Assembly (NCBI GenBank): GCA_031270725.1
Contig: JAISWS010000132.1
Span: 1 to 44,460, forward strand
Direction: 5' to 3'
Length of the DNA stretch: 44,460 bases
From: Syntrophomonadaceae bacterium
Lineage (GTDB): Bacteria > Bacillota > Syntrophomonadia > Syntrophomonadales > Syntrophomonadaceae
Shown here: piece by piece, positions 14,265 to 25,434 of the stretch
Layout of the letters: every line of letters begins with the position of its first letter
Position numbering within the stretch: position 1 is the stretch's first letter
Made by a program: the position numbers and the translations under genes
The notes under the pieces: model-generated
The model's input: only the letters and a program-made list of their open reading frames with translations
What the model was told of the DNA's origin: nothing
Databases searched by the model: none

Positions 14265-15002
14265 TTGTTAAAAAACAGAGCGGTTTTTATAAACAATTGG
14301 TGGATTAGAAGTTTGTCCGCGGCGGCGTTATTTATATTGGCCGTTTATTCTGCAACTGCGGGGCCTGAAGAACAAACCGTTTTTTCATACGCTTTGGCCG
14401 GTACGGTTATTGTTATTGACCCCGGACACGGCGGCGTGGATTCCGGCGCGGCGCGGGGAGGAATTTTAGAAAAAGATATTACGCTGCAAATAAGTAAAAA
14501 ATTAGCGCGGCAATTGTCTCAAAGCGGGGCTTTAGTAGTTTTGTTGCGGGAAAATGAAAGCGACCTGGCCGGAGATGAATTTACGGGGCGCATAAAGGAC
14601 CATAAAAACGAAGACATGCTGAAACGCGTTAACAAAGCCAATGAGGCTAAAGGAGACTTATTTATAAGTATACACGTCAACGCGTCGCCGAGCAGTGTCT
14701 GGTCCGGAGCCCAGACTTTTTACAAGCCGGAGCATGAAGAGAGCCGGAAAATAGCGGAAGCTATTCAAAACGCGCTCCGGTTTCAATTAAAAAATACTAA
14801 AAGAGCGGCGGCGGCCGGTGATTTCTTTGTGCTAAAAAAAACCAATATGCCGGCGGTAATGGTGGAAGCCGGATTTTTATCCAATAAAACCGAAGCTGAT
14901 TTATTAACGGATAATGATTATCAGGAAAGGCTGGTTCACGCTATTATAACCGGACTGGCAAATTTCAGGGCCGCACGGCCGGACAGCCGCTCAAACGGAT
15001 AG
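14265..15002 (+). CDS. cwlD: germination-specific N-acetylmuramoyl-L-alanine amidase
   Basis: TTG start and an N-terminal TM/signal anchor. Amidase_3 motifs are present: VIDPGHGGVDSGA, ISIHVNA and VMVEAGFLSN. The position after rplM-rpsI matches Bacillus and Clostridium. Confidence 0.88.
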   Translation: MLKNRAVFINNWWIRSLSAAALFILAVYSATAGPEEQTVFSYALAGTVIVIDPGHGGVDSGAARGGILEKDITLQISKKLARQLSQSGALVVLLRENESDLAGDEFTGRIKDHKNEDMLKRVNKANEAKGDLFISIHVNASPSSVWSGAQTFYKPEHEESRKIAEAIQNALRFQLKNTKRAAAAGDFFVLKKTNMPAVMVEAGFLSNKTEADLLTDNDYQERLVHAIITGLANFRAARPDSRSNG

Positions 15003-15110
15003 TATATGTAAATTATTTACCAAAGCTCTTTGTTTTTTTACTGGATTAGTGCTTTTAGAGTAACAAAACTCTGGTTTTTTAATACCGTATATAGTAAGAA
15101 CGGAAAGGAG

Positions 15111-15917
15111 ATGGTAGGAGTGGCTGATGTAACTCTTAATACTGTCCGGGAAGCGTACATTTCTCAATATTATCCTAATCAGAATTTTGGAAGCCCCCCG
15201 AGATTGTTTGCTGGCAGTTTCAAGCAAACATGCGGTGATATTTATCGCAGTTTGCTTGAATTTGATATGAGAGGACGTAAAGGCTGGAATACAAGCGGGT
15301 GTGGATGCCGTCATAAATACAGACATGAAGAAAGACACTGGCGCCACGACCATGACGATGACTGTGGCTGCGGAGGACACGGCTGGCGCCATGACCATGA
15401 CGATGACTGCGGCTGCGGAGGACACGGCTGGCGCCACGGCCATGACGATGACTGTGACTGCGATGAGCATGATAAGGGGAAGGGTTCAGGCAATCTGTGT
15501 GCCAAATGCATAGACACGGCCGTCTTGAAATTAACTTTGAGACGCAATGAAATACCGGTGAACGACTGCATAACGTTAAAAGTATATATGATTAATTCCC
15601 GCTGGGATGACGACAGGGTGAACTGGAAAAATCAACCTTCGGTATTTAGACGTTGTATAGGTTCAGAAAGCATCAATTCCGGGCTGGGAACAGTGAATAT
15701 TGATATTACCAGAGCTGTTGAAAATTGGTGCGCGTCCGGCGGCAGGTCTCCTTTCAGTATAATGATAGAAGGGGAAGAGGATTGCCTGCGCCTGGTGGGA
15801 TTTGCTTCCAGCTGTGACGCCACAGCCAGTGCGCGCCCGGCGATAGATATAACTTACAACGATTCTGAAGACTGCGGCTGTGCCAAAAATTTCGACTGTG
15901 ACTGTGATTGTGATTGA
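15111..15917 (+). CDS. DNRLRE-like domain protein with a His/Asp/Cys/Gly-rich tandem-repeat insert and a DCDCDCD tail
   Basis: ATG 15111 abuts AAGGAG; an in-frame GTG at 15120 is the alternative start. The flanks resemble the DNRLRE-type domain: YISQYYPNQNFGSPPRL...LLEFD, and LKVYMINSRWDDDRVNWKNQP. No signal peptide is present. Confidence 0.7.
   Translation: MVGVADVTLNTVREAYISQYYPNQNFGSPPRLFAGSFKQTCGDIYRSLLEFDMRGRKGWNTSGCGCRHKYRHEERHWRHDHDDDCGCGGHGWRHDHDDDCGCGGHGWRHGHDDDCDCDEHDKGKGSGNLCAKCIDTAVLKLTLRRNEIPVNDCITLKVYMINSRWDDDRVNWKNQPSVFRRCIGSESINSGLGTVNIDITRAVENWCASGGRSPFSIMIEGEEDCLRLVGFASSCDATASARPAIDITYNDSEDCGCAKNFDCDCDCD
15339..15473 (+). repeat. 3 x 45-nt in-frame tandem repeat (WRHDHDDDCGCGGHG units)
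   Basis: Units start at 15339, 15384 and 15429. Units 1 and 2 differ at only 2 nt, and both changes are synonymous (CAC/CAT, TGT/TGC). Unit 3 differs from unit 1 at 9 nt. Confidence 0.95.
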
Positions 15918-16188: not shown

Positions 16189-16290
16189 TTCAAATCCTCC
16201 CATGTTAACACGCTTTTAAAACATTTTTGAAAACAGGTTCTTAATGTATTCTGTCAGCCAATTACATAAGGCTTTGTCTTTTGCTGTTTT

Positions 16291-16728
16291 TTATTTTTCC
16301 GGTTCCAGGTTTTTTAATATTAATTTAAAGGCTTTTTTCAGAAACATAGCGTCCTTGTAAAAAGAATTAAGCCGCCCTATTTTTACCCCATTCAAATAAA
16401 CGTAATTTATAACCAACCAGTTGCGTATTTTAAAGGATTTGATTTTAGTTAATTTTACGCAGCCCGATGAAGTCAAAACCGCGGGATAACGGCCCAGCCT
16501 GTAATAAAGCCGCTGGTCAGTTATGAATATCCATCGGGCATTGCCCGTTTCAGCGTTACCTTTGCTAAATAGCAGGGGCGCTTCATTATCAGGCTCATAT
16601 TCAGGGAAATCATTTTTTACCAGACCAATGTATTCTTCACTGACGTTGGGATATAATTCCGTATCTCTAAGGTACGGCTTTTCGCTTTTTAACCGCTCAA
16701 TTATTTGCGGCAGTTTTTGGTTTAACAT
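16291..16728 (-). CDS. hypothetical cytoplasmic protein, 145 aa
   Basis: Clean ORF that follows the 72-aa membrane ORF by 26 nt. I cannot name a family; the core WIFITDQRLYYRL...IKSFKI may be PH/GRAM-like. Confidence 0.55.
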   Translation of the reverse strand: MLNQKLPQIIERLKSEKPYLRDTELYPNVSEEYIGLVKNDFPEYEPDNEAPLLFSKGNAETGNARWIFITDQRLYYRLGRYPAVLTSSGCVKLTKIKSFKIRNWLVINYVYLNGVKIGRLNSFYKDAMFLKKAFKLILKNLEPEK

Positions 16729-17019: not shown

Positions 17020-17086
17020 TTTGAATGGTTTTTTATTATTTTAACATGGCGTCAATGTTTTCATCAGTAAATTCATACCAGATAAC
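17020..17086 (-). repeat. copy A of the near-identical gene 3' end (including 16 nt beyond the stop codon)
   Basis: 66 of 67 nt are identical to 18712-18778. It encodes ...VIWYEFTDENIDAMLK*. Confidence 0.9.
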
Positions 17087-18085
17087 ATCTTCTTTTGCTT
17101 CCTGCTCTTTTCCAAACGTACGATATATATCTTCTGACACCGGCTCTTCATCAATATAAAATATATTACTGTGTTTCCCTTCTTCATCAATGCTGTAGGA
17201 AAATTCTCCAAGTTTTATTAATTCATATTTTTCTTGTAAAACTGGAAATATCAGCCGGCCATATCCACCAGTAACGTCGCTGGTTGAAAAATCAAATGTT
17301 CCATCTGTTTTTAGATTTTTTATGCCTACAATTGGAAAACAATAGCCAAGAACGGTGCCATATTCATAATGTAAAACTTCTATTTGCTCAAGTAGGTCCA
17401 ATAAGATTTCCGGATACCCGTCCCCATCCAGGTCAACTACTGCAAATTTGAATACTTTCCAAGGTTCATTACGATGATTTCCACGTTCATAATCAAATTC
17501 ATTTAAATATTTATAAGAATGTTCTTCAGTGCTAACAAGTTCCAACTGGCTTTTCAATACCAACCAATAAGCCTGTTGGTCCTGATTATTTTCGAAATAA
17601 TCCATTATAATTTCAGGTGATGGTTCACCTTTTTTAATCATTTTAAAATATTCGCCCGGGATTTTGTATTTTGGAATATCCGTTTCAATCGCTCCCCATA
17701 CAGTTATTAATTGCGGCTGTTTTTCAAATCTTATTAAAAGCTCTCCTTTTTCATATGTCGCAAATTTATGATCCGGCAAATATTTATCAAAAATTAAATT
17801 TATCTGGTTTTTATCCCCATGTACTTTTGCTTGTAGCCTTGTAAGCGACTGATAGCCGTCAATGTTAATTTTTGCATAGTAGCCGCCGTCTTTTTTATAA
17901 ATAGTTATTCCCAAAAAACGGTTTACTCCTACTTTAATATGCTCAGTAAGCGCATAGTAACCAACCCACGATTTTAGTTCATCTTCTTTTAGGGTATAAT
18001 TTTTTATTATAAAGCCCGAAAAAATAAGAAGCGTTATTATAATGCCGCCAACGACGAATATTTTTTTACGTTTATCTTCGCCCAT
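17036..18085 (-). CDS. membrane-anchored protein: N-terminal TM, a domain of about 150 aa, and one copy of the DLDGDG / ...YEFTDENIDAMLK module
   Basis: ATG 18085 lies 7 nt after AGGAG; the track ORF begins at TTG 18103. The TM segment is IFVVGGIIITLLIFSGFII. The C-terminal half is paralogous to both halves of 18728-20137. Confidence 0.8.
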   Translation of the reverse strand: MGEDKRKKIFVVGGIIITLLIFSGFIIKNYTLKEDELKSWVGYYALTEHIKVGVNRFLGITIYKKDGGYYAKINIDGYQSLTRLQAKVHGDKNQINLIFDKYLPDHKFATYEKGELLIRFEKQPQLITVWGAIETDIPKYKIPGEYFKMIKKGEPSPEIIMDYFENNQDQQAYWLVLKSQLELVSTEEHSYKYLNEFDYERGNHRNEPWKVFKFAVVDLDGDGYPEILLDLLEQIEVLHYEYGTVLGYCFPIVGIKNLKTDGTFDFSTSDVTGGYGRLIFPVLQEKYELIKLGEFSYSIDEEGKHSNIFYIDEEPVSEDIYRTFGKEQEAKEDVIWYEFTDENIDAMLK

Positions 18086-18202
18086 AGCTTTCTCTCCTGT
18101 CAATTATAAGTTTAGGCAGCGTCTGCATAAAGTCAGAAGATGGGAAACCAAATTCAACTGGCTTGAGAAAGAACCTAATTTATTCGGCTCCGCTCCGAGG
18201 TA

Positions 18203-18711: not shown

Positions 18712-18778
18712 TTTGAATAGTTTTTTATTATTTTAACATGGCGTCAATGTTTTCATCAGTAAATTCATACCAGATAAC
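18712..18778 (-). repeat. copy B of the near-identical gene 3' end
   Basis: See copy A. The single mismatch is at 18719 (17027 in copy A). Confidence 0.9.
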
Positions 18779-20137
18779 GTCTTCTTTTTCGTCTTGCCCT
18801 TCAACAAAAGTACGAAAATCTTCTTCTGAAACCCGTCTGTCCGCAATGTAAAATAATATTTCATATTTGCTTTTACCGTCTACGCTGATGCGGGATACGG
18901 ATTCTACCAGTTTTATGTATTCATAATTGTTCTTTGAAAACATCAGCCGGGCAAATCCGCCAGCAGCGGCGCTGCTTGCAAAATTAAAAGTTCCGTCCGT
19001 TTTTAAGCGCTTGAGTCCTCTATACGGGAAAAAATAACCATAAACAGTACCTTTTTCATAATGCAAAACTTCTACTTGATCGAATAATTCCAATAAAACT
19101 TCCGGATTTTTGTCCCCATCCAGATCAGCTACGGCAAATCTCAACACTTCCCAAGGCTTATCAAGGTGATCGCCGTGCTTATAATCAAATTCGTTTAAAT
19201 ATTTATAAGCATTTTCTTCGGAGCTGAAAAATTGTGATTGGCTTTTCAATACCGACCAATAAGTCCGTTTAGCTTGATTATTTTCAAAAATCGCCGGGAT
19301 TGGTTTTTCTGTTTCCGGGGCGGGTTCATTTTTAACAAGGCCATTACTGATATTGTTTTCTTTTAACATGGCGTCAATATTTTCGTCAGTAAATTCATAC
19401 CAGATAACATTTTCTTTTGCTGCCTGCTCTTTTTCAAACGTGCTGTATACATCTTTCGTCACTTGGTTTTCAGCAATATAAAATACATTGCTATATTTGC
19501 CTTCTTCATCGCTTTCCCAGGAATATTTCCCCAGTTTTATTAATTCGTATTTTTCTTCTGAGAAGATAAGCTGCCCGTATCCAGCAATAACAGATTTGTC
19601 AGCAGTATCACCTAAAAAATAAAAAGTTCCGTCTGTTTTCAGATTTTTCATGCTTCCCATTGGAAGGCAGTAACCATAAACGGTGCCGTCATTTTTATAA
19701 TGTAAAACCTCTACTTCGTATAATAATTCCAATAAAATTTCCGGATGCCCGTCCCCATCCAGGTCAACTACGGCAAATTGGAATACTTCCCAAGGCTGGT
19801 CTCGGTAGCCTCCTTTTGTATGGACACTCCTATAGTCATAGTCATAATCATAGCCATAATCATATTGATAATCAAATTCGTTTAAATATTTATAAGAATT
19901 TTCCTCGGTGCTGAAAAATTCTATATAACTTTTCACCGCTGACCAGTAAGCCCGCTTGGCCTGGCTATCTTTGAAAGGCACTAAAACAGGTTTCTCCGCC
20001 TCATGTATATTGTTTTCCGTTTTTAACGGTTCATCATTAACAGAGCCATTGTTATTATTCGCGGCATCTGCGCATCCCGTTAAAGCCAGGATAATAGTAA
20101 GGCAAAAGAGCGCCATAATTTTATTGATTTTTCCCAT
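18728..20137 (-). CDS. lipoprotein with two tandem copies of the module of about 190 aa (DLDGDGxPE motif, each ending VIWYEFTDENIDAMLK)
   Basis: Signal peptide plus lipobox: MGKINKIMALFCLTIILALTGC. There is an internal duplication, with module 1 at about 19364-20000 and module 2 at 18728 to about 19330. Confidence 0.85.
   Translation of the reverse strand: MGKINKIMALFCLTIILALTGCADAANNNNGSVNDEPLKTENNIHEAEKPVLVPFKDSQAKRAYWSAVKSYIEFFSTEENSYKYLNEFDYQYDYGYDYDYDYRSVHTKGGYRDQPWEVFQFAVVDLDGDGHPEILLELLYEVEVLHYKNDGTVYGYCLPMGSMKNLKTDGTFYFLGDTADKSVIAGYGQLIFSEEKYELIKLGKYSWESDEEGKYSNVFYIAENQVTKDVYSTFEKEQAAKENVIWYEFTDENIDAMLKENNISNGLVKNEPAPETEKPIPAIFENNQAKRTYWSVLKSQSQFFSSEENAYKYLNEFDYKHGDHLDKPWEVLRFAVADLDGDKNPEVLLELFDQVEVLHYEKGTVYGYFFPYRGLKRLKTDGTFNFASSAAAGGFARLMFSKNNYEYIKLVESVSRISVDGKSKYEILFYIADRRVSEEDFRTFVEGQDEKEDVIWYEFTDENIDAMLK
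19361..19408 (-). repeat. copy C (internal) of the conserved module end
   Basis: 46 of 48 nt are identical to 17039-17086. It is in-frame inside the lipoprotein gene. Confidence 0.85.
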
Positions 20138-20176: not shown

Positions 20177-20545
20177 CTAATTATTATATCTTGCCTTAAT
20201 TGCCTCAGCATAATCAACGCGATCTCTAAGCGCCCCTTCAGTTTTATCGTCAGGATTTTCATATCCAGCCATAATTACCCAAGTGGCATCATTGATATTC
20301 TGCGATTGTAACAGTTTTTGCCAATCATCATAAAATTCCCTATTTTTCGTGGTCAATTCTAAATACATAAATTCCAATTGGGTATTGAGATCCCCTAAAT
20401 AATTTGTTCCTTTGGTCGCCGCGTATATTTCTAAGCCCGATTTTCTTGAAAAGTGAGTCCACTGTATAATTCCCCAGCCGACGCCATCGTTTATGTTATA
20501 AGTTGTTGTCATAAAAGTATTGCATGGTTTTGCTACTTTCCGCAT
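20177..20545 (-). pseudogene. N-terminally truncated phage-tail-tip-lysozyme-like (cell-wall hydrolase) domain
   Basis: GVGWGIIQWTHFSRKSGL...GDLNTQLEFMYLEL...AGYENP resembles the C-terminal two-thirds of the family I recall as Phage_lysozyme2. The usual N-terminal part is absent and no RBS is evident. It may still be expressed from an internal Met. Confidence 0.5.
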
Positions 20546-20698: not shown

Positions 20699-21502
20699 CT
20701 AAGTATATAAATCTCTTTTTCTGTAAAAGGCTACCGTGAAATACGCCGCCATGCTTACAACGGCCATTGCAAGCAACAGATAAAGCAGGCTAATCCCATT
20801 TTGCGCCACCATTGGCCCATTGAAATACCACACCGGCGAAAGAAACCCAAGAAAATCAACCGTTTCGCTATATTCAATGATGAAGGCCACAAGGTAAGAA
20901 AATATCAATACGATAAACGCAGTGCGCGAGGCCGTTTTATTGCTTTTGAAAAGGGCCGCGCACTGCATCCCTACAACCAAAAAGATGAGTTGCGTAAAAA
21001 GCATTCCAGCCGATGTGATGATCACTTGGGGCAAAAGCGCCATCCCTCCAAATAAAGGCAATATGAACGCAACGGAGCCAATACAGGCCGTAAGTGTGAG
21101 CACCAGTATGCTCACCAATGCCGCAAGCATTTTTGACAGTATAACCGTACTGCGGGTATAGGGCTTGGTGTACAAAAATTCGCCTGTCTTAAATCGTTCT
21201 TCTTTCGTGATAGTATGAACGCCCAACCATGTAGCGAATGGAAACGTAATCAGGCAAAACCAATAGTACATACACGCATAACCGCCCAAATCAGTATTGA
21301 GGGGAAGCGCGTCAACACCAAACATAATGCGTACAATGCGGGGAATATCCGCTACTGTAGTGGCTATCACATCCATAGAATCTTGCAAAGAAACAAATTC
21401 CACAGCGCCAAACGCGGCGGCCAGCAGCATCAGTGCAGAGCAGATGATTAGTGTTCTGCGACCAAGTTTTAATTCCTTCAAAAAAATCGTTTTCATTTTC
21501 AT
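20699..21502 (-). CDS. ABC-2 type exporter permease (second)
   Basis: 267 aa with about 6 TM segments. It follows the first permease by 10 nt. Confidence 0.8.
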   Translation of the reverse strand: MKMKTIFLKELKLGRRTLIICSALMLLAAAFGAVEFVSLQDSMDVIATTVADIPRIVRIMFGVDALPLNTDLGGYACMYYWFCLITFPFATWLGVHTITKEERFKTGEFLYTKPYTRSTVILSKMLAALVSILVLTLTACIGSVAFILPLFGGMALLPQVIITSAGMLFTQLIFLVVGMQCAALFKSNKTASRTAFIVLIFSYLVAFIIEYSETVDFLGFLSPVWYFNGPMVAQNGISLLYLLLAMAVVSMAAYFTVAFYRKRDLYT

Positions 21503-21512
21503 TATCCCCCTT

Positions 21513-22319
21513 CTAACGTATCACGACATCTTTTTTTCGGTAAATGAAGCTCCCTACAAGGGTGAAGGCTATTACCAAGAAAATCAACCACACCACATAC
21601 CGCATATCATAGCCGCCCATATCAGCCACGATAGAGCCGCCAAAGTATTTTGGGGGCGATAAAAAGATTAAGATATCCGCGCCGGTTACCTGTGCCATAG
21701 TGCCTATGATGATGGTGATAAATAGGGTAATCACCGAAGTAAAGATGGATTTTCGGATTTTTGGCAATATTGTTCCCAAGAAAAAGCCAAACGACATGAA
21801 CAGGACGCTATTCAAAATAATTGAACAGGCCAACAACACGAATAGCTTGAAGTCAAATCCGGCGGCAAAGATATTCAATGACACGAGCGACGCAAGGAAA
21901 TATGCGACCCCAATACTCAAAACTGCCACAGCCGCCGCGAACAGCTTTGAGATGAATATTTTTGTGCGATTGTGGGGCTTTGTCAAAAGGAAATCCGCCG
22001 TTCCCTGCATATACTCCTTTGTGTGGATTGACAGACCGATGTGCATGGCAATGACCGCAAGCGCAAGCCCGAAAAACCAACCTGTCAAAAAGCCGTACAT
22101 ACCGATGGGCTTTGATAGAAATTCGGCGCTGATATCCACCGCCTGTAAAAAGCTGTTACCATCCACTGTTGCCAGCGTTTCTGTGCGCGCACTCCCATCA
22201 GGGTTCGTGGTAATACTTATATAAGGCGGCAGTAAACAGAACAGCAGAACCGAAAAGGCAATCACGCCTCCCAGTATTAGCCCACGCATTTGCCGCAGTT
22301 CATATTTGAAAATAGCCAT
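21513..22319 (-). CDS. ABC-2 type exporter permease (first)
   Basis: ATG 22319 lies 6 nt after AGGAGG and gives MAIFKYELRQMRG. The track ORF extension overlaps the ATPase. The protein is polytopic. Confidence 0.8.
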   Translation of the reverse strand: MAIFKYELRQMRGLILGGVIAFSVLLFCLLPPYISITTNPDGSARTETLATVDGNSFLQAVDISAEFLSKPIGMYGFLTGWFFGLALAVIAMHIGLSIHTKEYMQGTADFLLTKPHNRTKIFISKLFAAAVAVLSIGVAYFLASLVSLNIFAAGFDFKLFVLLACSIILNSVLFMSFGFFLGTILPKIRKSIFTSVITLFITIIIGTMAQVTGADILIFLSPPKYFGGSIVADMGGYDMRYVVWLIFLVIAFTLVGSFIYRKKDVVIR

Positions 22320-22329
22320 ACCGCACCTC

Positions 22330-23211
22330 CTACTTGTAATAATGCAGGAAAATTTCTTCCAGCGTTGGTTCTTCAATGAAAACATCGCTTACCGGCAAAT
22401 TATGCAGCTTGCCGAGTATATCGCCCACTTTTCCCATAAACAGGAATGAGGCGCCGGCGCCGTCCTCGTTATAGCTTGCGATACCGGGCATATCGAAATA
22501 CTCTTGCGGAATTGATTGTTCCGTGGTGAGCGCAATCTTTTTATATCCGTTTTTACGCAAGTCGCTGATCTTCTGTATGTTGATAATTTGCCCCTCTTTG
22601 ATGATCGCCACCCTGCCGCAGATCTTTTGCACCTCGCTGAGTACATGGGAAGAAAAGAGAATGGTTGCGCCCTTTTGGTTTTCTTCCCGGAGTATGTCAA
22701 AAAAGGTTTGCTGCACCAGTGGGTCAAGGCCGCTTGTGGGTTCGTCCAAGATAATCAGTTTGGGGGAATGAAGCAGCGCGGCCACGATACCAACCTTCTT
22801 TTTATTGCCAAAAGAGAGGTCGGAAATCTTGCGGCTTGTATCAAGGTTCAGGCGCTCGGCAAGCTCTTTGATTCGTCCGTCAACCTTTTTCCCGTACAGG
22901 GCCGCCGCGTAGCTGAGAAATTCCCGTACCTTCATATTTTCGTAATAGCTGCTTTCGCTGGGCAGATATCCCACATCCTTTGCTATCTCCGCCGCCTGTG
23001 CGATGCAGTCCTTTCCCCAAATGGCAGCCTTGCCCGAAGTGGGGTGGATAAGCGCAAGCAAGGTGCGTATGGTGGTGGACTTGCCCGCTCCATTGGGGCC
23101 GATGAAGCCGTATATTTCGCCTTCCTCCACCGTAAAATTCACATCCACAATCCCTCTGAATGCGCCATAATTTTTTTTGAGATTGGTGATTTCAATAACT
23201 GTGCCGCTCAT
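22330..23211 (-). CDS. ABC transporter ATP-binding protein
   Basis: Walker A is GPNGAGKST, Walker B is IILDEPTSGLD, and the signature is degenerate (LSFGNKKK). The start overlaps the tetR stop (ATGA). Confidence 0.9.
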   Translation of the reverse strand: MSGTVIEITNLKKNYGAFRGIVDVNFTVEEGEIYGFIGPNGAGKSTTIRTLLALIHPTSGKAAIWGKDCIAQAAEIAKDVGYLPSESSYYENMKVREFLSYAAALYGKKVDGRIKELAERLNLDTSRKISDLSFGNKKKVGIVAALLHSPKLIILDEPTSGLDPLVQQTFFDILREENQKGATILFSSHVLSEVQKICGRVAIIKEGQIINIQKISDLRKNGYKKIALTTEQSIPQEYFDMPGIASYNEDGAGASFLFMGKVGDILGKLHNLPVSDVFIEEPTLEEIFLHYYK

Positions 23212-23825
23212 AGGTATTCCCCCTTATAAAAATTGTTTTTCATAAAATCGAGGCATTTGTAGAAATCCGCCATATGTACATCAAGATCTTCCGCGCTAAC
23301 GCCCATAGGCATCGTGTTGACCAGCCCTTCAGAAGCCCAGGTCAACAATTTCAGCAACAGCGCAGGGTCAGCGCCGTCCTTGAATTTTGTCAGGTCTACC
23401 CCCTCAATCATCATTCCCTGTGTGGAAGCGACACCCGCCGAGGTCGTCTTTTTTATCTCGCTTTCAACCTCCGGATCGGTTTCAAAGAACACATTTCGCA
23501 GAAATGACAGAAGGGCCGGATGCTGCTTCATCACAGATATCTGAATTTCGGTTGTCAGTTTTAGCTTGTCGAAAAAATCCGTGACGTTTTTATCAAGCCG
23601 CTTTTCCATTTCGCCAGTCAGAAGTTTCCCGCAAAACTCAATCAGATAAAAATACAAGTCTTTTTTGCTGCCAAAGTAGTGAAATATCATTCCTTTTGAT
23701 ATGCCTGCGGCTACGGCAATATCACCGGCAGATGCTTTTCGGTACACATTCCGCCCAAAGACGGTAAGCGCCCCGTCTATGATGCGCTTTTGCTTTTCAG
23801 GCGGAAGGGCAAAAAACTTTTCCAT
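23208..23825 (-). CDS. TetR/AcrR family transcriptional regulator
   Basis: ATG 23825 lies 8 nt after GGAGG. The HTH is ASAGDIAVAAGISKGMIFHYFGSKKDLY. Confidence 0.88.
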   Translation of the reverse strand: MEKFFALPPEKQKRIIDGALTVFGRNVYRKASAGDIAVAAGISKGMIFHYFGSKKDLYFYLIEFCGKLLTGEMEKRLDKNVTDFFDKLKLTTEIQISVMKQHPALLSFLRNVFFETDPEVESEIKKTTSAGVASTQGMMIEGVDLTKFKDGADPALLLKLLTWASEGLVNTMPMGVSAEDLDVHMADFYKCLDFMKNNFYKGEYL

Positions 23826-23843
23826 ACGCAACACCTCCAAAAT

Positions 23844-23895
23844 AATAAACCGATTCGGTTTATTGCAGAATATCATAATAAACCTAATTGGTCAA
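23844..23895 (-). promoter_or_regulatory. tetR-ABC promoter with a 21-bp perfect palindromic operator
   Basis: On the minus strand: TTGACC (23895-23890), a 17-nt spacer, then TATTCT (23872-23867). The palindrome AATAAACCGA-T-TCGGTTTATT (23844-23864) lies between the -10 element and the RBS. Confidence 0.6.
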
Positions 23896-24357: not shown

Positions 24358-24564
24358 TTATTGCTTTGCCAGTCCTGCCATAATGTCGGCAGTTGTAATG
24401 TCCTTTAATAATTCTTTCTGTTCTTCGGTATAATTTCCTTCACCTGTTTCATACTGCCTAAGAAAGTATGCCATACCAACTGGAGTTAAGGCTTTGGAAA
24501 GAGCTTCAATGCCCATTTTCCGAAGCGCAACAGGATTTCTAAAATCTATCGCTTGATTCATCAT
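24358..24564 (-). CDS. small acidic partner protein of the PIN gene (putative antitoxin), 68 aa
   Basis: Its ATG overlaps the PIN TGA (ATGA at 24564-24561) and GGAGG lies 4 nt upstream. The sequence is MMNQAIDF...MAYFLRQYETGEGNYTEEQKELL. Confidence 0.7.
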   Translation of the reverse strand: MMNQAIDFRNPVALRKMGIEALSKALTPVGMAYFLRQYETGEGNYTEEQKELLKDITTADIMAGLAKQ

Positions 24565-24995
24565 AACACCTCCGCAACCCAATTCAATGGATTTTCAACT
24601 TTTACTTTTAATGATATTTTGCTTGACAGCTTAATGAGCTTATCATCCGTAGTCAGAAATATGTCAGTTCCGGCACTTTCTGCACAGGCAATATGAAAAC
24701 TGTCCAATGGTTTTATCCCTATCTGTTGAATTTCAACTGCTCTTTTCTCAATTTCAGCTGTTACCAAAACCCTTTCACTTGCTATACTGCATAGCTCCAT
24801 GACCTTCTCTTTTTTCGCTGGGTTTGTCATTTTGCTTACTTCAAAATCAATTATATTGCTTCCAATCAAAGTCCAGCCACCTTTATGGCAATGGTTCAAA
24901 ATTGATAAAACCACTTCGGCTTCTAAATATATTCTGTCTTGCTCCTGATTATCAAAAGGGCGGTTATATGAACAAACATCCATATATATCTTCAT
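24561..24995 (-). CDS. PIN-domain ribonuclease-like protein (putative toxin), 144 aa
   Basis: ATG 24995 gives MKIYMDVCSYNRPFDNQ. The conserved acidic PIN positions are YMD, LEAE, PLDSFH and LTTDD. The track ORF extends upstream through the promoter. Confidence 0.8.
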   Translation of the reverse strand: MKIYMDVCSYNRPFDNQEQDRIYLEAEVVLSILNHCHKGGWTLIGSNIIDFEVSKMTNPAKKEKVMELCSIASERVLVTAEIEKRAVEIQQIGIKPLDSFHIACAESAGTDIFLTTDDKLIKLSSKISLKVKVENPLNWVAEVL

Positions 24996-25019
24996 TGGCA
25001 ACACCTCAAATTTAATATT

Positions 25020-25048
25020 ATTGTATGCCAAATTTACAGAAAAATCAA
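25020..25048 (-). promoter_or_regulatory. sigma-A-type promoter of the PIN operon
   Basis: On the minus strand: TTGATT (25048-25043), a 17-nt spacer, then TACAAT (25025-20). It lies about 25 nt upstream of the ATG. Confidence 0.55.
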
Positions 25049-25434
25049 TGTGTTTTTCAATCAATGTGGTTAGTCCCGTTTTCCACAAACAGCAGCGGTA
25101 TTTCCTTTTCCGGGTCATAGTCAGCGTAAACTTTCCGGACATGCTCCATGCGCTCAGGTTTTATGAAGCGGGAGATTTTTCAAAATCATGCGGACAATTT
25201 TTTAAGCGGGGCAAACGCCCGAAATTAGCTGAGAACGGAGAGATGAGGGCTGAAAGTGCCAAGAGGCAATCTAAAGACTTTTCGATTCATAATGAAGTTA
25301 ATCTCCGTTAACTAAAAATAAAAAGAGACAGGAGGCAATGTAAATGACCGTAAAATTAAAAATGCGGGCAACATAACAGCAAAAATGCTATTCAGAAAAA
25401 AATCAGAAAAATATTTTAAAAGGATAGTGGGAGA

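Follow-up and report, generated by a model that had tools for sequence, protein, structure and literature searches.

A DNRLRE/CBM96 beta-sandwich with a cysteine-rich repeat loop, encoded beside cwlD in Syntrophomonadaceae, as a candidate cross-linking protein of the spore envelope

Several groups of described proteins offer points of comparison for the gene considered here. The closest in fold are the DNRLRE/CBM96 beta-sandwich domains, which are known as secreted modules in polysaccharide lyases, S-layer proteins or disaggregatases. Others come from spore surfaces: CotG-like modular proteins of the Bacillus coat have disordered tandem repeats that vary strongly between species, are rich in lysine, serine and arginine and are phosphorylated by CotH; Ena subunits are DUF3992 jellyrolls with few cysteines, tied to their neighbours by a flexible, cysteine-bearing N-terminal connector; and glycoproteins of the BclA type (BclA of Bacillus anthracis/cereus, BclA1-3 of Clostridioides difficile) combine collagen repeats with a BclA_C/C1q head, their classical N-terminal targeting peptide being unrelated to DNRLRE. 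Metal sequestration or delivery through cysteine, histidine and aspartate is known from the C-terminal tail of SlyD (Escherichia coli), from Hpn and Hpn-like proteins (Helicobacter) and from metallothioneins. Finally, the cysteine-rich spore-envelope proteins CotY, CotZ and ExsY (Bacillus), CdeC and CdeM (C. difficile) and CsxA and CsxC (Clostridium sporogenes) are folded, form two-dimensional crystals and have been proposed to build cross-linked, self-assembling outer layers (PMC6101409; PMC7333573; PMC5434927). Here, we studied a gene that lies directly after a cwlD-like sporulation amidase gene in a 44,460-nucleotide (nt) stretch of DNA from a Syntrophomonadaceae bacterium (GCA_031270725.1, contig JAISWS010000132.1; hereafter the window), and that encodes a predicted DNRLRE/CBM96 sandwich interrupted by a loop of cysteine-, histidine- and aspartate-rich tandem repeats. 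With a probability that we put at about 45%, its product is a structural protein of the spore envelope, made in the mother cell, whose loop and C-terminal tail cross-link it via disulfides and/or metals.

Profile matches and a predicted structure identify the protein as a DNRLRE/CBM96 beta-sandwich of two antiparallel sheets, homologous to solved members and superposable on them. It scores 66.5 bits against the NCBIfam model DNRLRE_dom (NF033679; cut-off 34), reaching model position 164 of 164, and 55.9 bits against Pfam CBM96 (PF24517; gathering score 26), each match being split into two stretches by the insert. An AlphaFold2 model built on a 57-sequence family alignment (predicted template modelling score, pTM, 0.72) puts the insert between a strand at residues 41-48 and a strand at residues 131-143; its local confidence (predicted local distance difference test, pLDDT; Table 1) passes 90 in the flanks, the first of which covers residues 1-49, and is low in the insert and the tail. 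A Foldseek search of the Protein Data Bank (PDB) returned 8wab, a chondroitin-sulfate-binding module (template modelling score 0.80, E = 3.5e-10), and 7vbo, the founding CBM96 module, alginate-binding TM6-N4 (0.75), with TGF-beta pro-domains next at far weaker scores, and the family profile found the same two structures by sequence (7vbo, E = 1.3e-10; 8wab, E = 2.8e-9). The DNRLRE character of the flanks, which an earlier reading of the window from its letters alone (the sequence-only reading) had proposed, is thus upheld.

Unlike the known CBM96 modules, the window protein stands alone, begins at domain residue 1 and carries a loop of 79 amino acids (aa) rich in Cys, His and Asp as well as a Cys tail. 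It has neither a signal peptide nor a transmembrane segment, as had been noted before (over 19 residues the Kyte-Doolittle mean peaks at 0.77), and residues 3-15 form a beta-strand of the fold, not a signal segment. These features bear on whether the protein could be a carbohydrate-binding component of the vegetative cell surface or of the extracellular space that reaches its site by non-classical export. Family membership speaks for that idea, since characterised CBM96/DNRLRE members bind alginate or chondroitin sulfate; yet we consider it very unlikely given the missing signal peptide, transmembrane segment and catalytic partner domain, a loop with nine free cysteines that is atypical of secreted CBMs, and the absence of most of the alginate-binding Lys/Arg residues. 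In TM6-N4 the residues that bind alginate are Lys10, 22, 25, 27 and 31, Arg36 and Tyr159 (PMC9971899). In an approximate mapping by hidden Markov model (HMM) alignment, K22 falls on Pro and K27 on Ala, K10 and K25 are without a counterpart, R36 falls on Ile with a conserved Arg two positions on, and only K31 is matched (by K35). On this approximate mapping alginate-type binding appears to be ruled out, a verdict that does not extend to glycan binding in general.

The insert was placed between ...YRSLLEFD and AVLKLTL by alignment with insert-less relatives, which it exceeds by some 72-79 residues, and together with the disorder in the AlphaFold2 model this agrees with the loop insertion that the sequence-only reading had envisaged. 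Its composition is also as described there: His, Asp, Cys, Gly, Arg and Trp make up 80% of its 79 aa and 90% of a 60-aa core. All 12 histidines of the protein and 9 of its 21 cysteines lie within the insert, which ends in the CxxC motif NLCAKC, and a further five cysteines are in the 19-aa tail. Tandem Repeats Finder reports a period of 45 nt (2.8 copies, 92% matches, score 222), corresponding to the three in-frame 15-aa units that had been recognised by eye, and the first two units are separated by two synonymous changes in 45 nt (CAC/CAT and TGT/TGC; 95.6% identity). According to the structure model, insert and tail are intrinsically disordered. Neither matches a Pfam or NCBIfam family, and the insert alone has no match among PDB sequences at E<=10.

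Orthologs proved difficult to find at the protein level. Among 5.8 billion proteins, a word-indexed search recovered nothing but the window protein itself, the same kind of search with a 29-sequence profile essentially only the query, and an exact-sequence look-up found the protein on no other contig. When 1.84 billion representatives were scanned exhaustively with HMMER, 385 matched at E <= 1e-3, all at <=43% identity except for one 52-aa fragment at 94%. This fragment led to a contig from a JGI metagenome (L010; 82% identical to the window at the DNA level) on which cwlD is followed by an intact, in-frame open reading frame (ORF) of 291/294 aa (L010:1058-1942), its product being 83% identical to the window protein. 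A second ortholog was reached by following RpoA relatives to their contigs: the metagenome-assembled genome (MAG) GCA_031553935.1 (L019; RpoA 85% identical) has, directly 3' of cwlD, an ORF of 459 aa (L019:14377-15756) with 48% identity. The two proteins score 67 (L010) and 101 bits (L019, in two stretches) against DNRLRE_dom; two scans of metagenome contigs found no further relatives.

The protein searches came back empty because gene callers had missed both orthologs and annotated off-frame ORFs in their place. On the L010 contig the pipeline split the ortholog into off-frame pieces; the mis-called products ('ADATTTADAIAAV...', 180 and 113 aa) have no Pfam match, and those of L019 read 'ADATTTADA...'. 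Corresponding frames exist over the repeat in the window, at 14991-15470 (-), 159 aa, and 15301-15513 (+), 70 aa, with translations rich in Ala, Thr, Val and Met; we rejected both as genes and regard them as by-products of GC-rich Cys/His/Asp/Gly codons. Since two of the three orthologs had been mis-called in this way, Cys-rich repeat proteins are too sparsely represented in protein databases, and such genes will escape any search made with proteins alone. The failed gene calls, the overlapping off-frame ORFs and a first protein search that returned nothing but the query might suggest an assembly artefact or a decaying pseudogene with a simple repeat. That explanation can almost be dismissed, as three independent assemblies contain orthologs that are intact and in frame, the fold is predicted confidently on both sides of the insert, the upstream and ribosome-binding-site sequences are conserved, and the gene is under purifying selection.

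The last point follows from the ratio of nonsynonymous to synonymous substitution rates (dN/dS), computed by the Nei-Gojobori method between the window and L010: 0.056 for the fold (both halves), 0.061 for the tail and 0.145 for the neighbouring cwlD, with 0.125 for the insert, a value qualified by a synonymous rate (dS) of ~1.5, near saturation. The DNRLRE gene is real and under purifying selection, and the retention of frame and insert in two diverged, syntenic orthologs at low dN/dS is beyond chance.

Comparison of the repeats in these three genomes (the window, L010 and L019) shows what is kept and what changes. The insert measures 85 aa in the window, 110 in L010 and 167 in L019 when counted between the same sequence landmarks. 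In L010 it lies in the same loop, has a 48-nt repeat (2.2 copies, 94% matches) and is accompanied by the same tail; in L019 it holds 34 cysteines in 72-nt units encoding ...GFDCGCNNNCGCNSGCGSGCDSGC..., and the tail has grown to 129 aa with 39 cysteines in CGCNQG/CGCNDG units (18/36-nt period, 8.9 copies). No Pfam family covers either repeat region of L019. The cysteine share of the whole protein rises from 7.8% (window) through 10.2% (L010) to 16.6% (L019) and the number of histidines falls from 12 through 7 to 4, while a D-C-G-C/C-x-C motif persists in loop and tail of all three. Because of these opposite trends, the sequences point to Cys-x-Cys, often in the form D-C-G-C, and not histidine as the conserved element. 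The emphasis of the sequence-only reading on histidine and divalent-metal capacity calls for revision: it applies to one lineage, and it is the cysteine chemistry that is conserved. The fold's own seven cysteines were considered as family-wide disulfides or a zinc site, and this was rejected since L019 does not retain the majority of them.

Within a genome the repeat units are 94-96% alike, against 62-79% between genomes, and their periods are not the same (45 nt in the window, 48 nt in L010, 72 and 18-36 nt in L019), which indicates that repeat duplication or conversion took place after the lineages had split. The same pattern could be read in another way, with only the DNRLRE fold functional and the repeats of loop and tail as slippage expansions tolerated in a permissive loop. 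Such a reading would account for inserts that differ greatly in length and sequence between orthologs, for units that homogenise within genomes as slippage or conversion would make them do, for the lack of structure in the AlphaFold2 model of loop and tail, and for the closest insert-less relatives, which seem complete as they are. We nevertheless judge it unlikely: the dN/dS of the insert is below that of cwlD even if its dS is close to saturation, the Cys-rich make-up and D-C-G-C persist in three orthologs in both loop and tail, and the frame is always kept. Further, another family member, P0045, has an H/D/C repeat of the HHDDCFDFD type (27-30-nt period) in the same loop but with a different unit, which suggests recurrent selection on this loop.

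In H/D/C/G make-up, C-x-C/CGC motifs, disorder and the multi-site binding of soft or borderline metals that would be expected, the insert resembles the SlyD C-terminus, Hpn and Hpn-like proteins and bacterial metallothioneins by analogy; homology to metallothioneins or metal tails was not detected in Pfam, NCBIfam or the PDB search with the insert (E<=10), and the window segment differs from them in being an internal loop of a CBM-like fold, in its tandem repeats and in the loss of histidine in orthologs. A protein that buffers, stores or chaperones Ni, Zn, Co or Cu in the cytoplasm, unrelated to spores, would be in keeping with the composition, with the C-x-C motifs and one CxxC motif, with the absence of a signal peptide and with disorder like that of known metal-binding tails. 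This is rather improbable, in our view. Genes for metal transporters or for hydrogenase or urease maturation are not adjacent, the upstream energy-coupling-factor (ECF) genes belonging to the universal ribosomal-cluster neighbourhood; histidine is lost in L019 and repeat length varies two- to six-fold, unlike what would be expected of a stoichiometric chaperone; we know of no metallochaperone that uses a CBM96-type sandwich; and the architectures found in the family point to spore surfaces.

These architectures come from a sub-family whose members start at domain residue 1, have a (D/E)AYISQYYPNQNFG motif near residue 10 and are usually 175-190 aa long; no signal peptide was found in the members inspected. 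The nearest ones, from Thermosyntropha, Syntrophomonas, Syntrophomonadaceae and Syntrophomonadales, are annotated solely as 'DNRLRE domain-containing protein' or 'hypothetical protein', and the window protein presumably already bears the first of these labels. Repeat inserts in the same loop occur in three other proteins (L010, L019 and P0045), so the insert is less singular than the sequence-only reading had supposed; it was right that no paper describes such a protein, the 13 papers that mention DNRLRE being silent on both spores and an insert of this kind. Elsewhere in the sub-family, His-rich inserts precede the last strand (P0064, P0093, P0048, P0033, P0026), 'QNCC...' Cys tails end the protein (P0009, P0036, P0085), or the domain is combined with collagen G-x-y repeats (P0040, P0110), with a GT1 glycosyltransferase (P0018) or, in forms of ~285 aa, with DUF6385; in P0013, a weak match to BclA_C, under the Pfam cut-off, takes the place of collagen repeats.

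On contig_30 of Clostridium drakei SL1 (L002:811-9533), genes stand in a row for a methyltransferase, for three CBM96/DNRLRE proteins, of which two have collagen repeats, and for a 900-aa C1q/collagen/BclA_C protein. They probably make up an exosporium 'hairy nap' locus, with DNRLRE as the N-terminal domain. This domain belongs to the same sub-family as the window protein, is 30% identical to it and has an identical AYISQYYPNQNFG motif, a likeness that implies, by analogy, a shared docking role on the spore surface. By Pfam the window protein has neither the collagen repeats nor the BclA_C/C1q head of BclA-type glycoproteins; its variable displayed part would be the Cys-rich loop and tail. In a Syntrophomonas MAG (L003:6522-8907), an insert-less 180-aa homolog lies between uvdE (UvdE UV-endonuclease) and tlp, a small acid-soluble spore protein (SASP) gene; a contig of another Syntrophomonas MAG (L004:159-1694) begins at the DNRLRE gene, followed by an mscL-like ORF and then tlp, with no uvdE visible. 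The Thermosyntropha copy is operon-like, 12 nt after genes for UDP-glucose dehydrogenase and an epimerase. DUF4489 genes recur beside DNRLRE-family genes on two unrelated contigs (L006:11394-13186 and L017:1212-2701), the first of which also has a second CBM96 paralog of 290 aa and a gene for a CtpB-like protease. Literature searches returned nothing on DUF4489 or DUF6385, and a 2026 preprint on the spore envelope does not mention the CBM96/DNRLRE fold.

The link to sporulation in the window itself is the upstream gene. Its best match is spore_cwlD (TIGR02883) at 215 bits, slightly under the cut-off of 221.55, with 172.9 bits for Amidase_3; the corresponding gene of L019 passes the same cut-off at 224 bits, and the claim that our gene directly follows cwlD holds. 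The two genes are adjacent in L010 and L019 too, giving synteny in three genomes, and in all three synteny stops downstream of the DNRLRE gene. No DNRLRE gene follows cwlD in three other Syntrophomonas genomes (L022:15907-19332, L023:16239-19445 and L024), where genes of the AmmeMemoRadiSam system stand directly 3' of cwlD (LigB/AMMECR1 and a radical SAM gene, with Memo in L022). Because these genes take the position after cwlD, gene order argues that the linkage of cwlD and DNRLRE is specific to one sub-clade.

Between cwlD and the gene are 108 nt, in which two blocks (Table 1) are invariant in the window, L010 and L019 and the remainder diverges, the second block being conserved as TAATACC..TATAGTAAG. 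Promoters of the sigmaK type have AC at -35 and a CATA-like -10 element in both Bacillus and Clostridioides (Saujet et al., PMC3789822), and those of the mother-cell sigmaK/sigmaE type more broadly have AC or ATA at -35 and a CATA-like -10 element (PMC3789822). The arrangement AC-16 nt-AATACCnTA is tentatively compatible with this mother-cell type, as a degenerate match that we offer as a lead only. Upstream of distant family members, regex scans for sigmaK/sigmaE-like motifs gave no consistent picture, and for this reason the regulatory evidence is limited to the three-ortholog footprint. A sigma-70 and terminator scan found no terminator in the spacer and nothing meaningful beside the gene, its terminator-like matches falling within coding sequence, and Rfam detected neither a riboswitch nor another known RNA in the spacer or in the surroundings of the gene. 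A RAGATH-8 covariance-model match at 16260-16400 (-), truncated at the edge of the searched stretch, is probably due to chance (18.9 bits against a gathering score of 86.7, E = 0.038).

In the reading that we prefer, the protein would be part of the endospore envelope (the coat or an exosporium-like layer), made without a signal peptide and most likely in the mother cell. The beta-sandwich would act as an assembly or anchoring module that docks on an envelope protein or a spore-surface glycan, presumably as the homologous N-terminal domain of the C. drakei collagen-repeat proteins does. The disordered loop (~79 aa) and the tail would offer some 14 cysteines at close spacing, chiefly within D-C-G-C or C-D-C motifs, along with 12 histidines and many aspartates in the window lineage, and would serve as multivalent cross-linkers: through metal-thiolate/imidazole bridges (Zn, Ni, Co, Cu or Fe) in the reduced state, and/or through intermolecular disulfides after release of the spore. 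Either chemistry could tie the protein into an insoluble network. As the repeats evolve by duplication or conversion, length and residue make-up would shift fast and the C-x-C theme would stay. We infer mother-cell expression, spore localisation and the metal or disulfide chemistry rather than having observed them; a spore-envelope role fits the indirect evidence, namely the synteny with cwlD, the relatives with collagen/BclA_C parts or next to tlp, the Cys tails, the lack of a signal peptide and the sigmaK/E-like element.

Compared with CotY/CotZ/ExsY, CdeC/CdeM and CsxA/CsxC, the protein would have in common a high cysteine content and a place in cross-linked outer layers, but there is no relation in sequence or fold, and its cysteines sit in disordered tandem repeats grafted on a CBM-like fold. 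With CotG and Ena it may share a design principle, by analogy and not by homology. The mechanism would thus be analogous to that of known Cys-rich coat proteins, and the DNRLRE domain as such is already known; we found no earlier description, in the 13 papers that mention DNRLRE or elsewhere, of a sub-family in endospore formers that lacks signal peptides and shows exosporium-type architectures, of a clade linked to cwlD whose hypervariable Cys-x-Cys repeats sit in one defined loop and in the tail, or of the systematic mis-calling of Cys-repeat DNRLRE genes.

Several points weigh against this reading. Adjacency to cwlD is found in one sub-clade only and alone is weak evidence of function. Histidine content is not conserved, which makes a dedicated role in metal binding uncertain. 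Of the basic, alginate-binding residues most appear not to be conserved; fold membership therefore says nothing firm on the ligand or on glycan binding by the fold. The promoter assignment leans on a degenerate consensus, in which the first -10 position has A where C is expected. As strict anaerobes, the hosts would need exposure to an oxidant for disulfides to form. Lastly, the annotation of one distant member of the family assigns it to a Chitinophagales MAG, an organism that does not form spores.

A broader claim is possible but doubtful: signal-peptide-less DNRLRE/CBM96 sandwiches could be a widespread docking module of the endospore surface in Clostridia and Syntrophomonadales, on which lineages hang collagen/BclA heads, glycosyltransferases, DUF6385 or His-rich loops, with the cwlD-linked sub-clade using Cys-x-Cys repeats (up to 16.6% Cys) as a metal-thiolate/disulfide 'cement' or a metal sink, the class having stayed hidden since gene callers misread the frame of the repeat. 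If the reading that we prefer is right, there would be a new building block of the spore envelope outside the Bacillus and C. difficile models, a CBM-like docking domain with fast-evolving Cys-rich repeats, and the function-less DNRLRE proteins of anaerobic spore formers would be tied to the spore surface. This could be relevant to how metals are sequestered and to how syntrophic fatty-acid oxidisers persist in digesters and sediments.

The position of the gene and of its parts is given in Table 1. The open reading frame on the + strand spans 15030..15917, and the 268-aa product originally read from it, starting at ATG 15111, is borne out, as are all the other details of the sequence-only reading that could be checked. 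Sequence comparison leaves the start ambiguous by three codons, because ATG 15111 is kept in all three orthologs and GTG 15120 is not conserved, while the public gene call (P0001) uses GTG 15120; residue numbers here follow the 265-aa form.

Table 1. Coordinates of the DNRLRE gene, its upstream elements and its upstream neighbour in the window
Feature	Coordinates	Strand	Remarks
cwlD-like sporulation N-acetylmuramoyl-L-alanine amidase, upstream neighbour	14265..15002	+	conserved position
Upstream block 1, AGAGTAACAAAA	15057..15068	+	candidate -35 element with 'AC'; function inferred
Upstream block 2, TAATACCGTATATAGTAAG	15080..15098	+	candidate -10 element; AATACCnTA 16 nt after AC; TATAGT present too
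Shine-Dalgarno-like GGAAAGGAG	15102..15110	+	conserved in 3/3 orthologs; adjoins ATG 15111, 9 nt 5' of GTG 15120
Whole coding sequence	15111..15917	+	268 aa via ATG 15111, 265 aa via GTG 15120; stop 15915-15917
Beta-sandwich part 1	15111..15266	+	three strands including AYISQYYPNQNFG motif; pLDDT 91-98; HMM stretch 1; dN/dS 0.084
Disordered loop insert, Cys/His/Asp/Gly-rich (predicted)	15267..15503	+	residues 50-128 (265-aa numbering); pLDDT 44-60; dN/dS 0.125 (dS near saturation)
Three in-frame 45-nt tandem units	15339..15473	+	starts 15339, 15384, 15429; encode WRHDHDDDCGCGGHG, WRHDHDDDCGCGGHG, WRHGHDDDCDCDEHD
Beta-sandwich part 2	15504..15857	+	residues 129-246; pLDDT mostly 85-98; HMM stretch 2; dN/dS 0.042
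Disordered Cys/Asp C-terminal tail NDSEDCGCAKNFDCDCDCD (predicted)	15858..15914	+	19 aa; pLDDT 38-48; dN/dS 0.061; kept in L010, 129 aa in L019

RpoA of the window is 97% identical to that of a Syntrophomonadaceae MAG and 83-85% to those of Syntrophomonas species, and by this protein the host is placed in Syntrophomonadaceae. A further contig, L018 (JGI 3300042612, the metagenome shared with L010), has an RpoA 97% identical to the window's and, after ecfT, CNNM and enoyl-CoA hydratase genes in place of truA-rplM-rpsI-cwlD; either the locus is rearranged there or L010 and L018 derive from different organisms. Downstream of the DNRLRE gene in the window, the minus strand carries a phage-tail-lysozyme-like gene (20177-20545), an ABC-2 transporter set with a TetR regulator (20699-23876) and a PIN-domain gene (24561-25142), consistent with a variable or accessory segment that follows the conserved ribosomal-cwlD block. 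Within the same segment are two adjacent paralogs with DUF5991/FG-GAP-like matches, at 17036-18103 (-) and 18728-20137 (-), which hold one and two copies, respectively, of a module ending ...VIWYEFTDENIDAMLK and look like a recent duplication.

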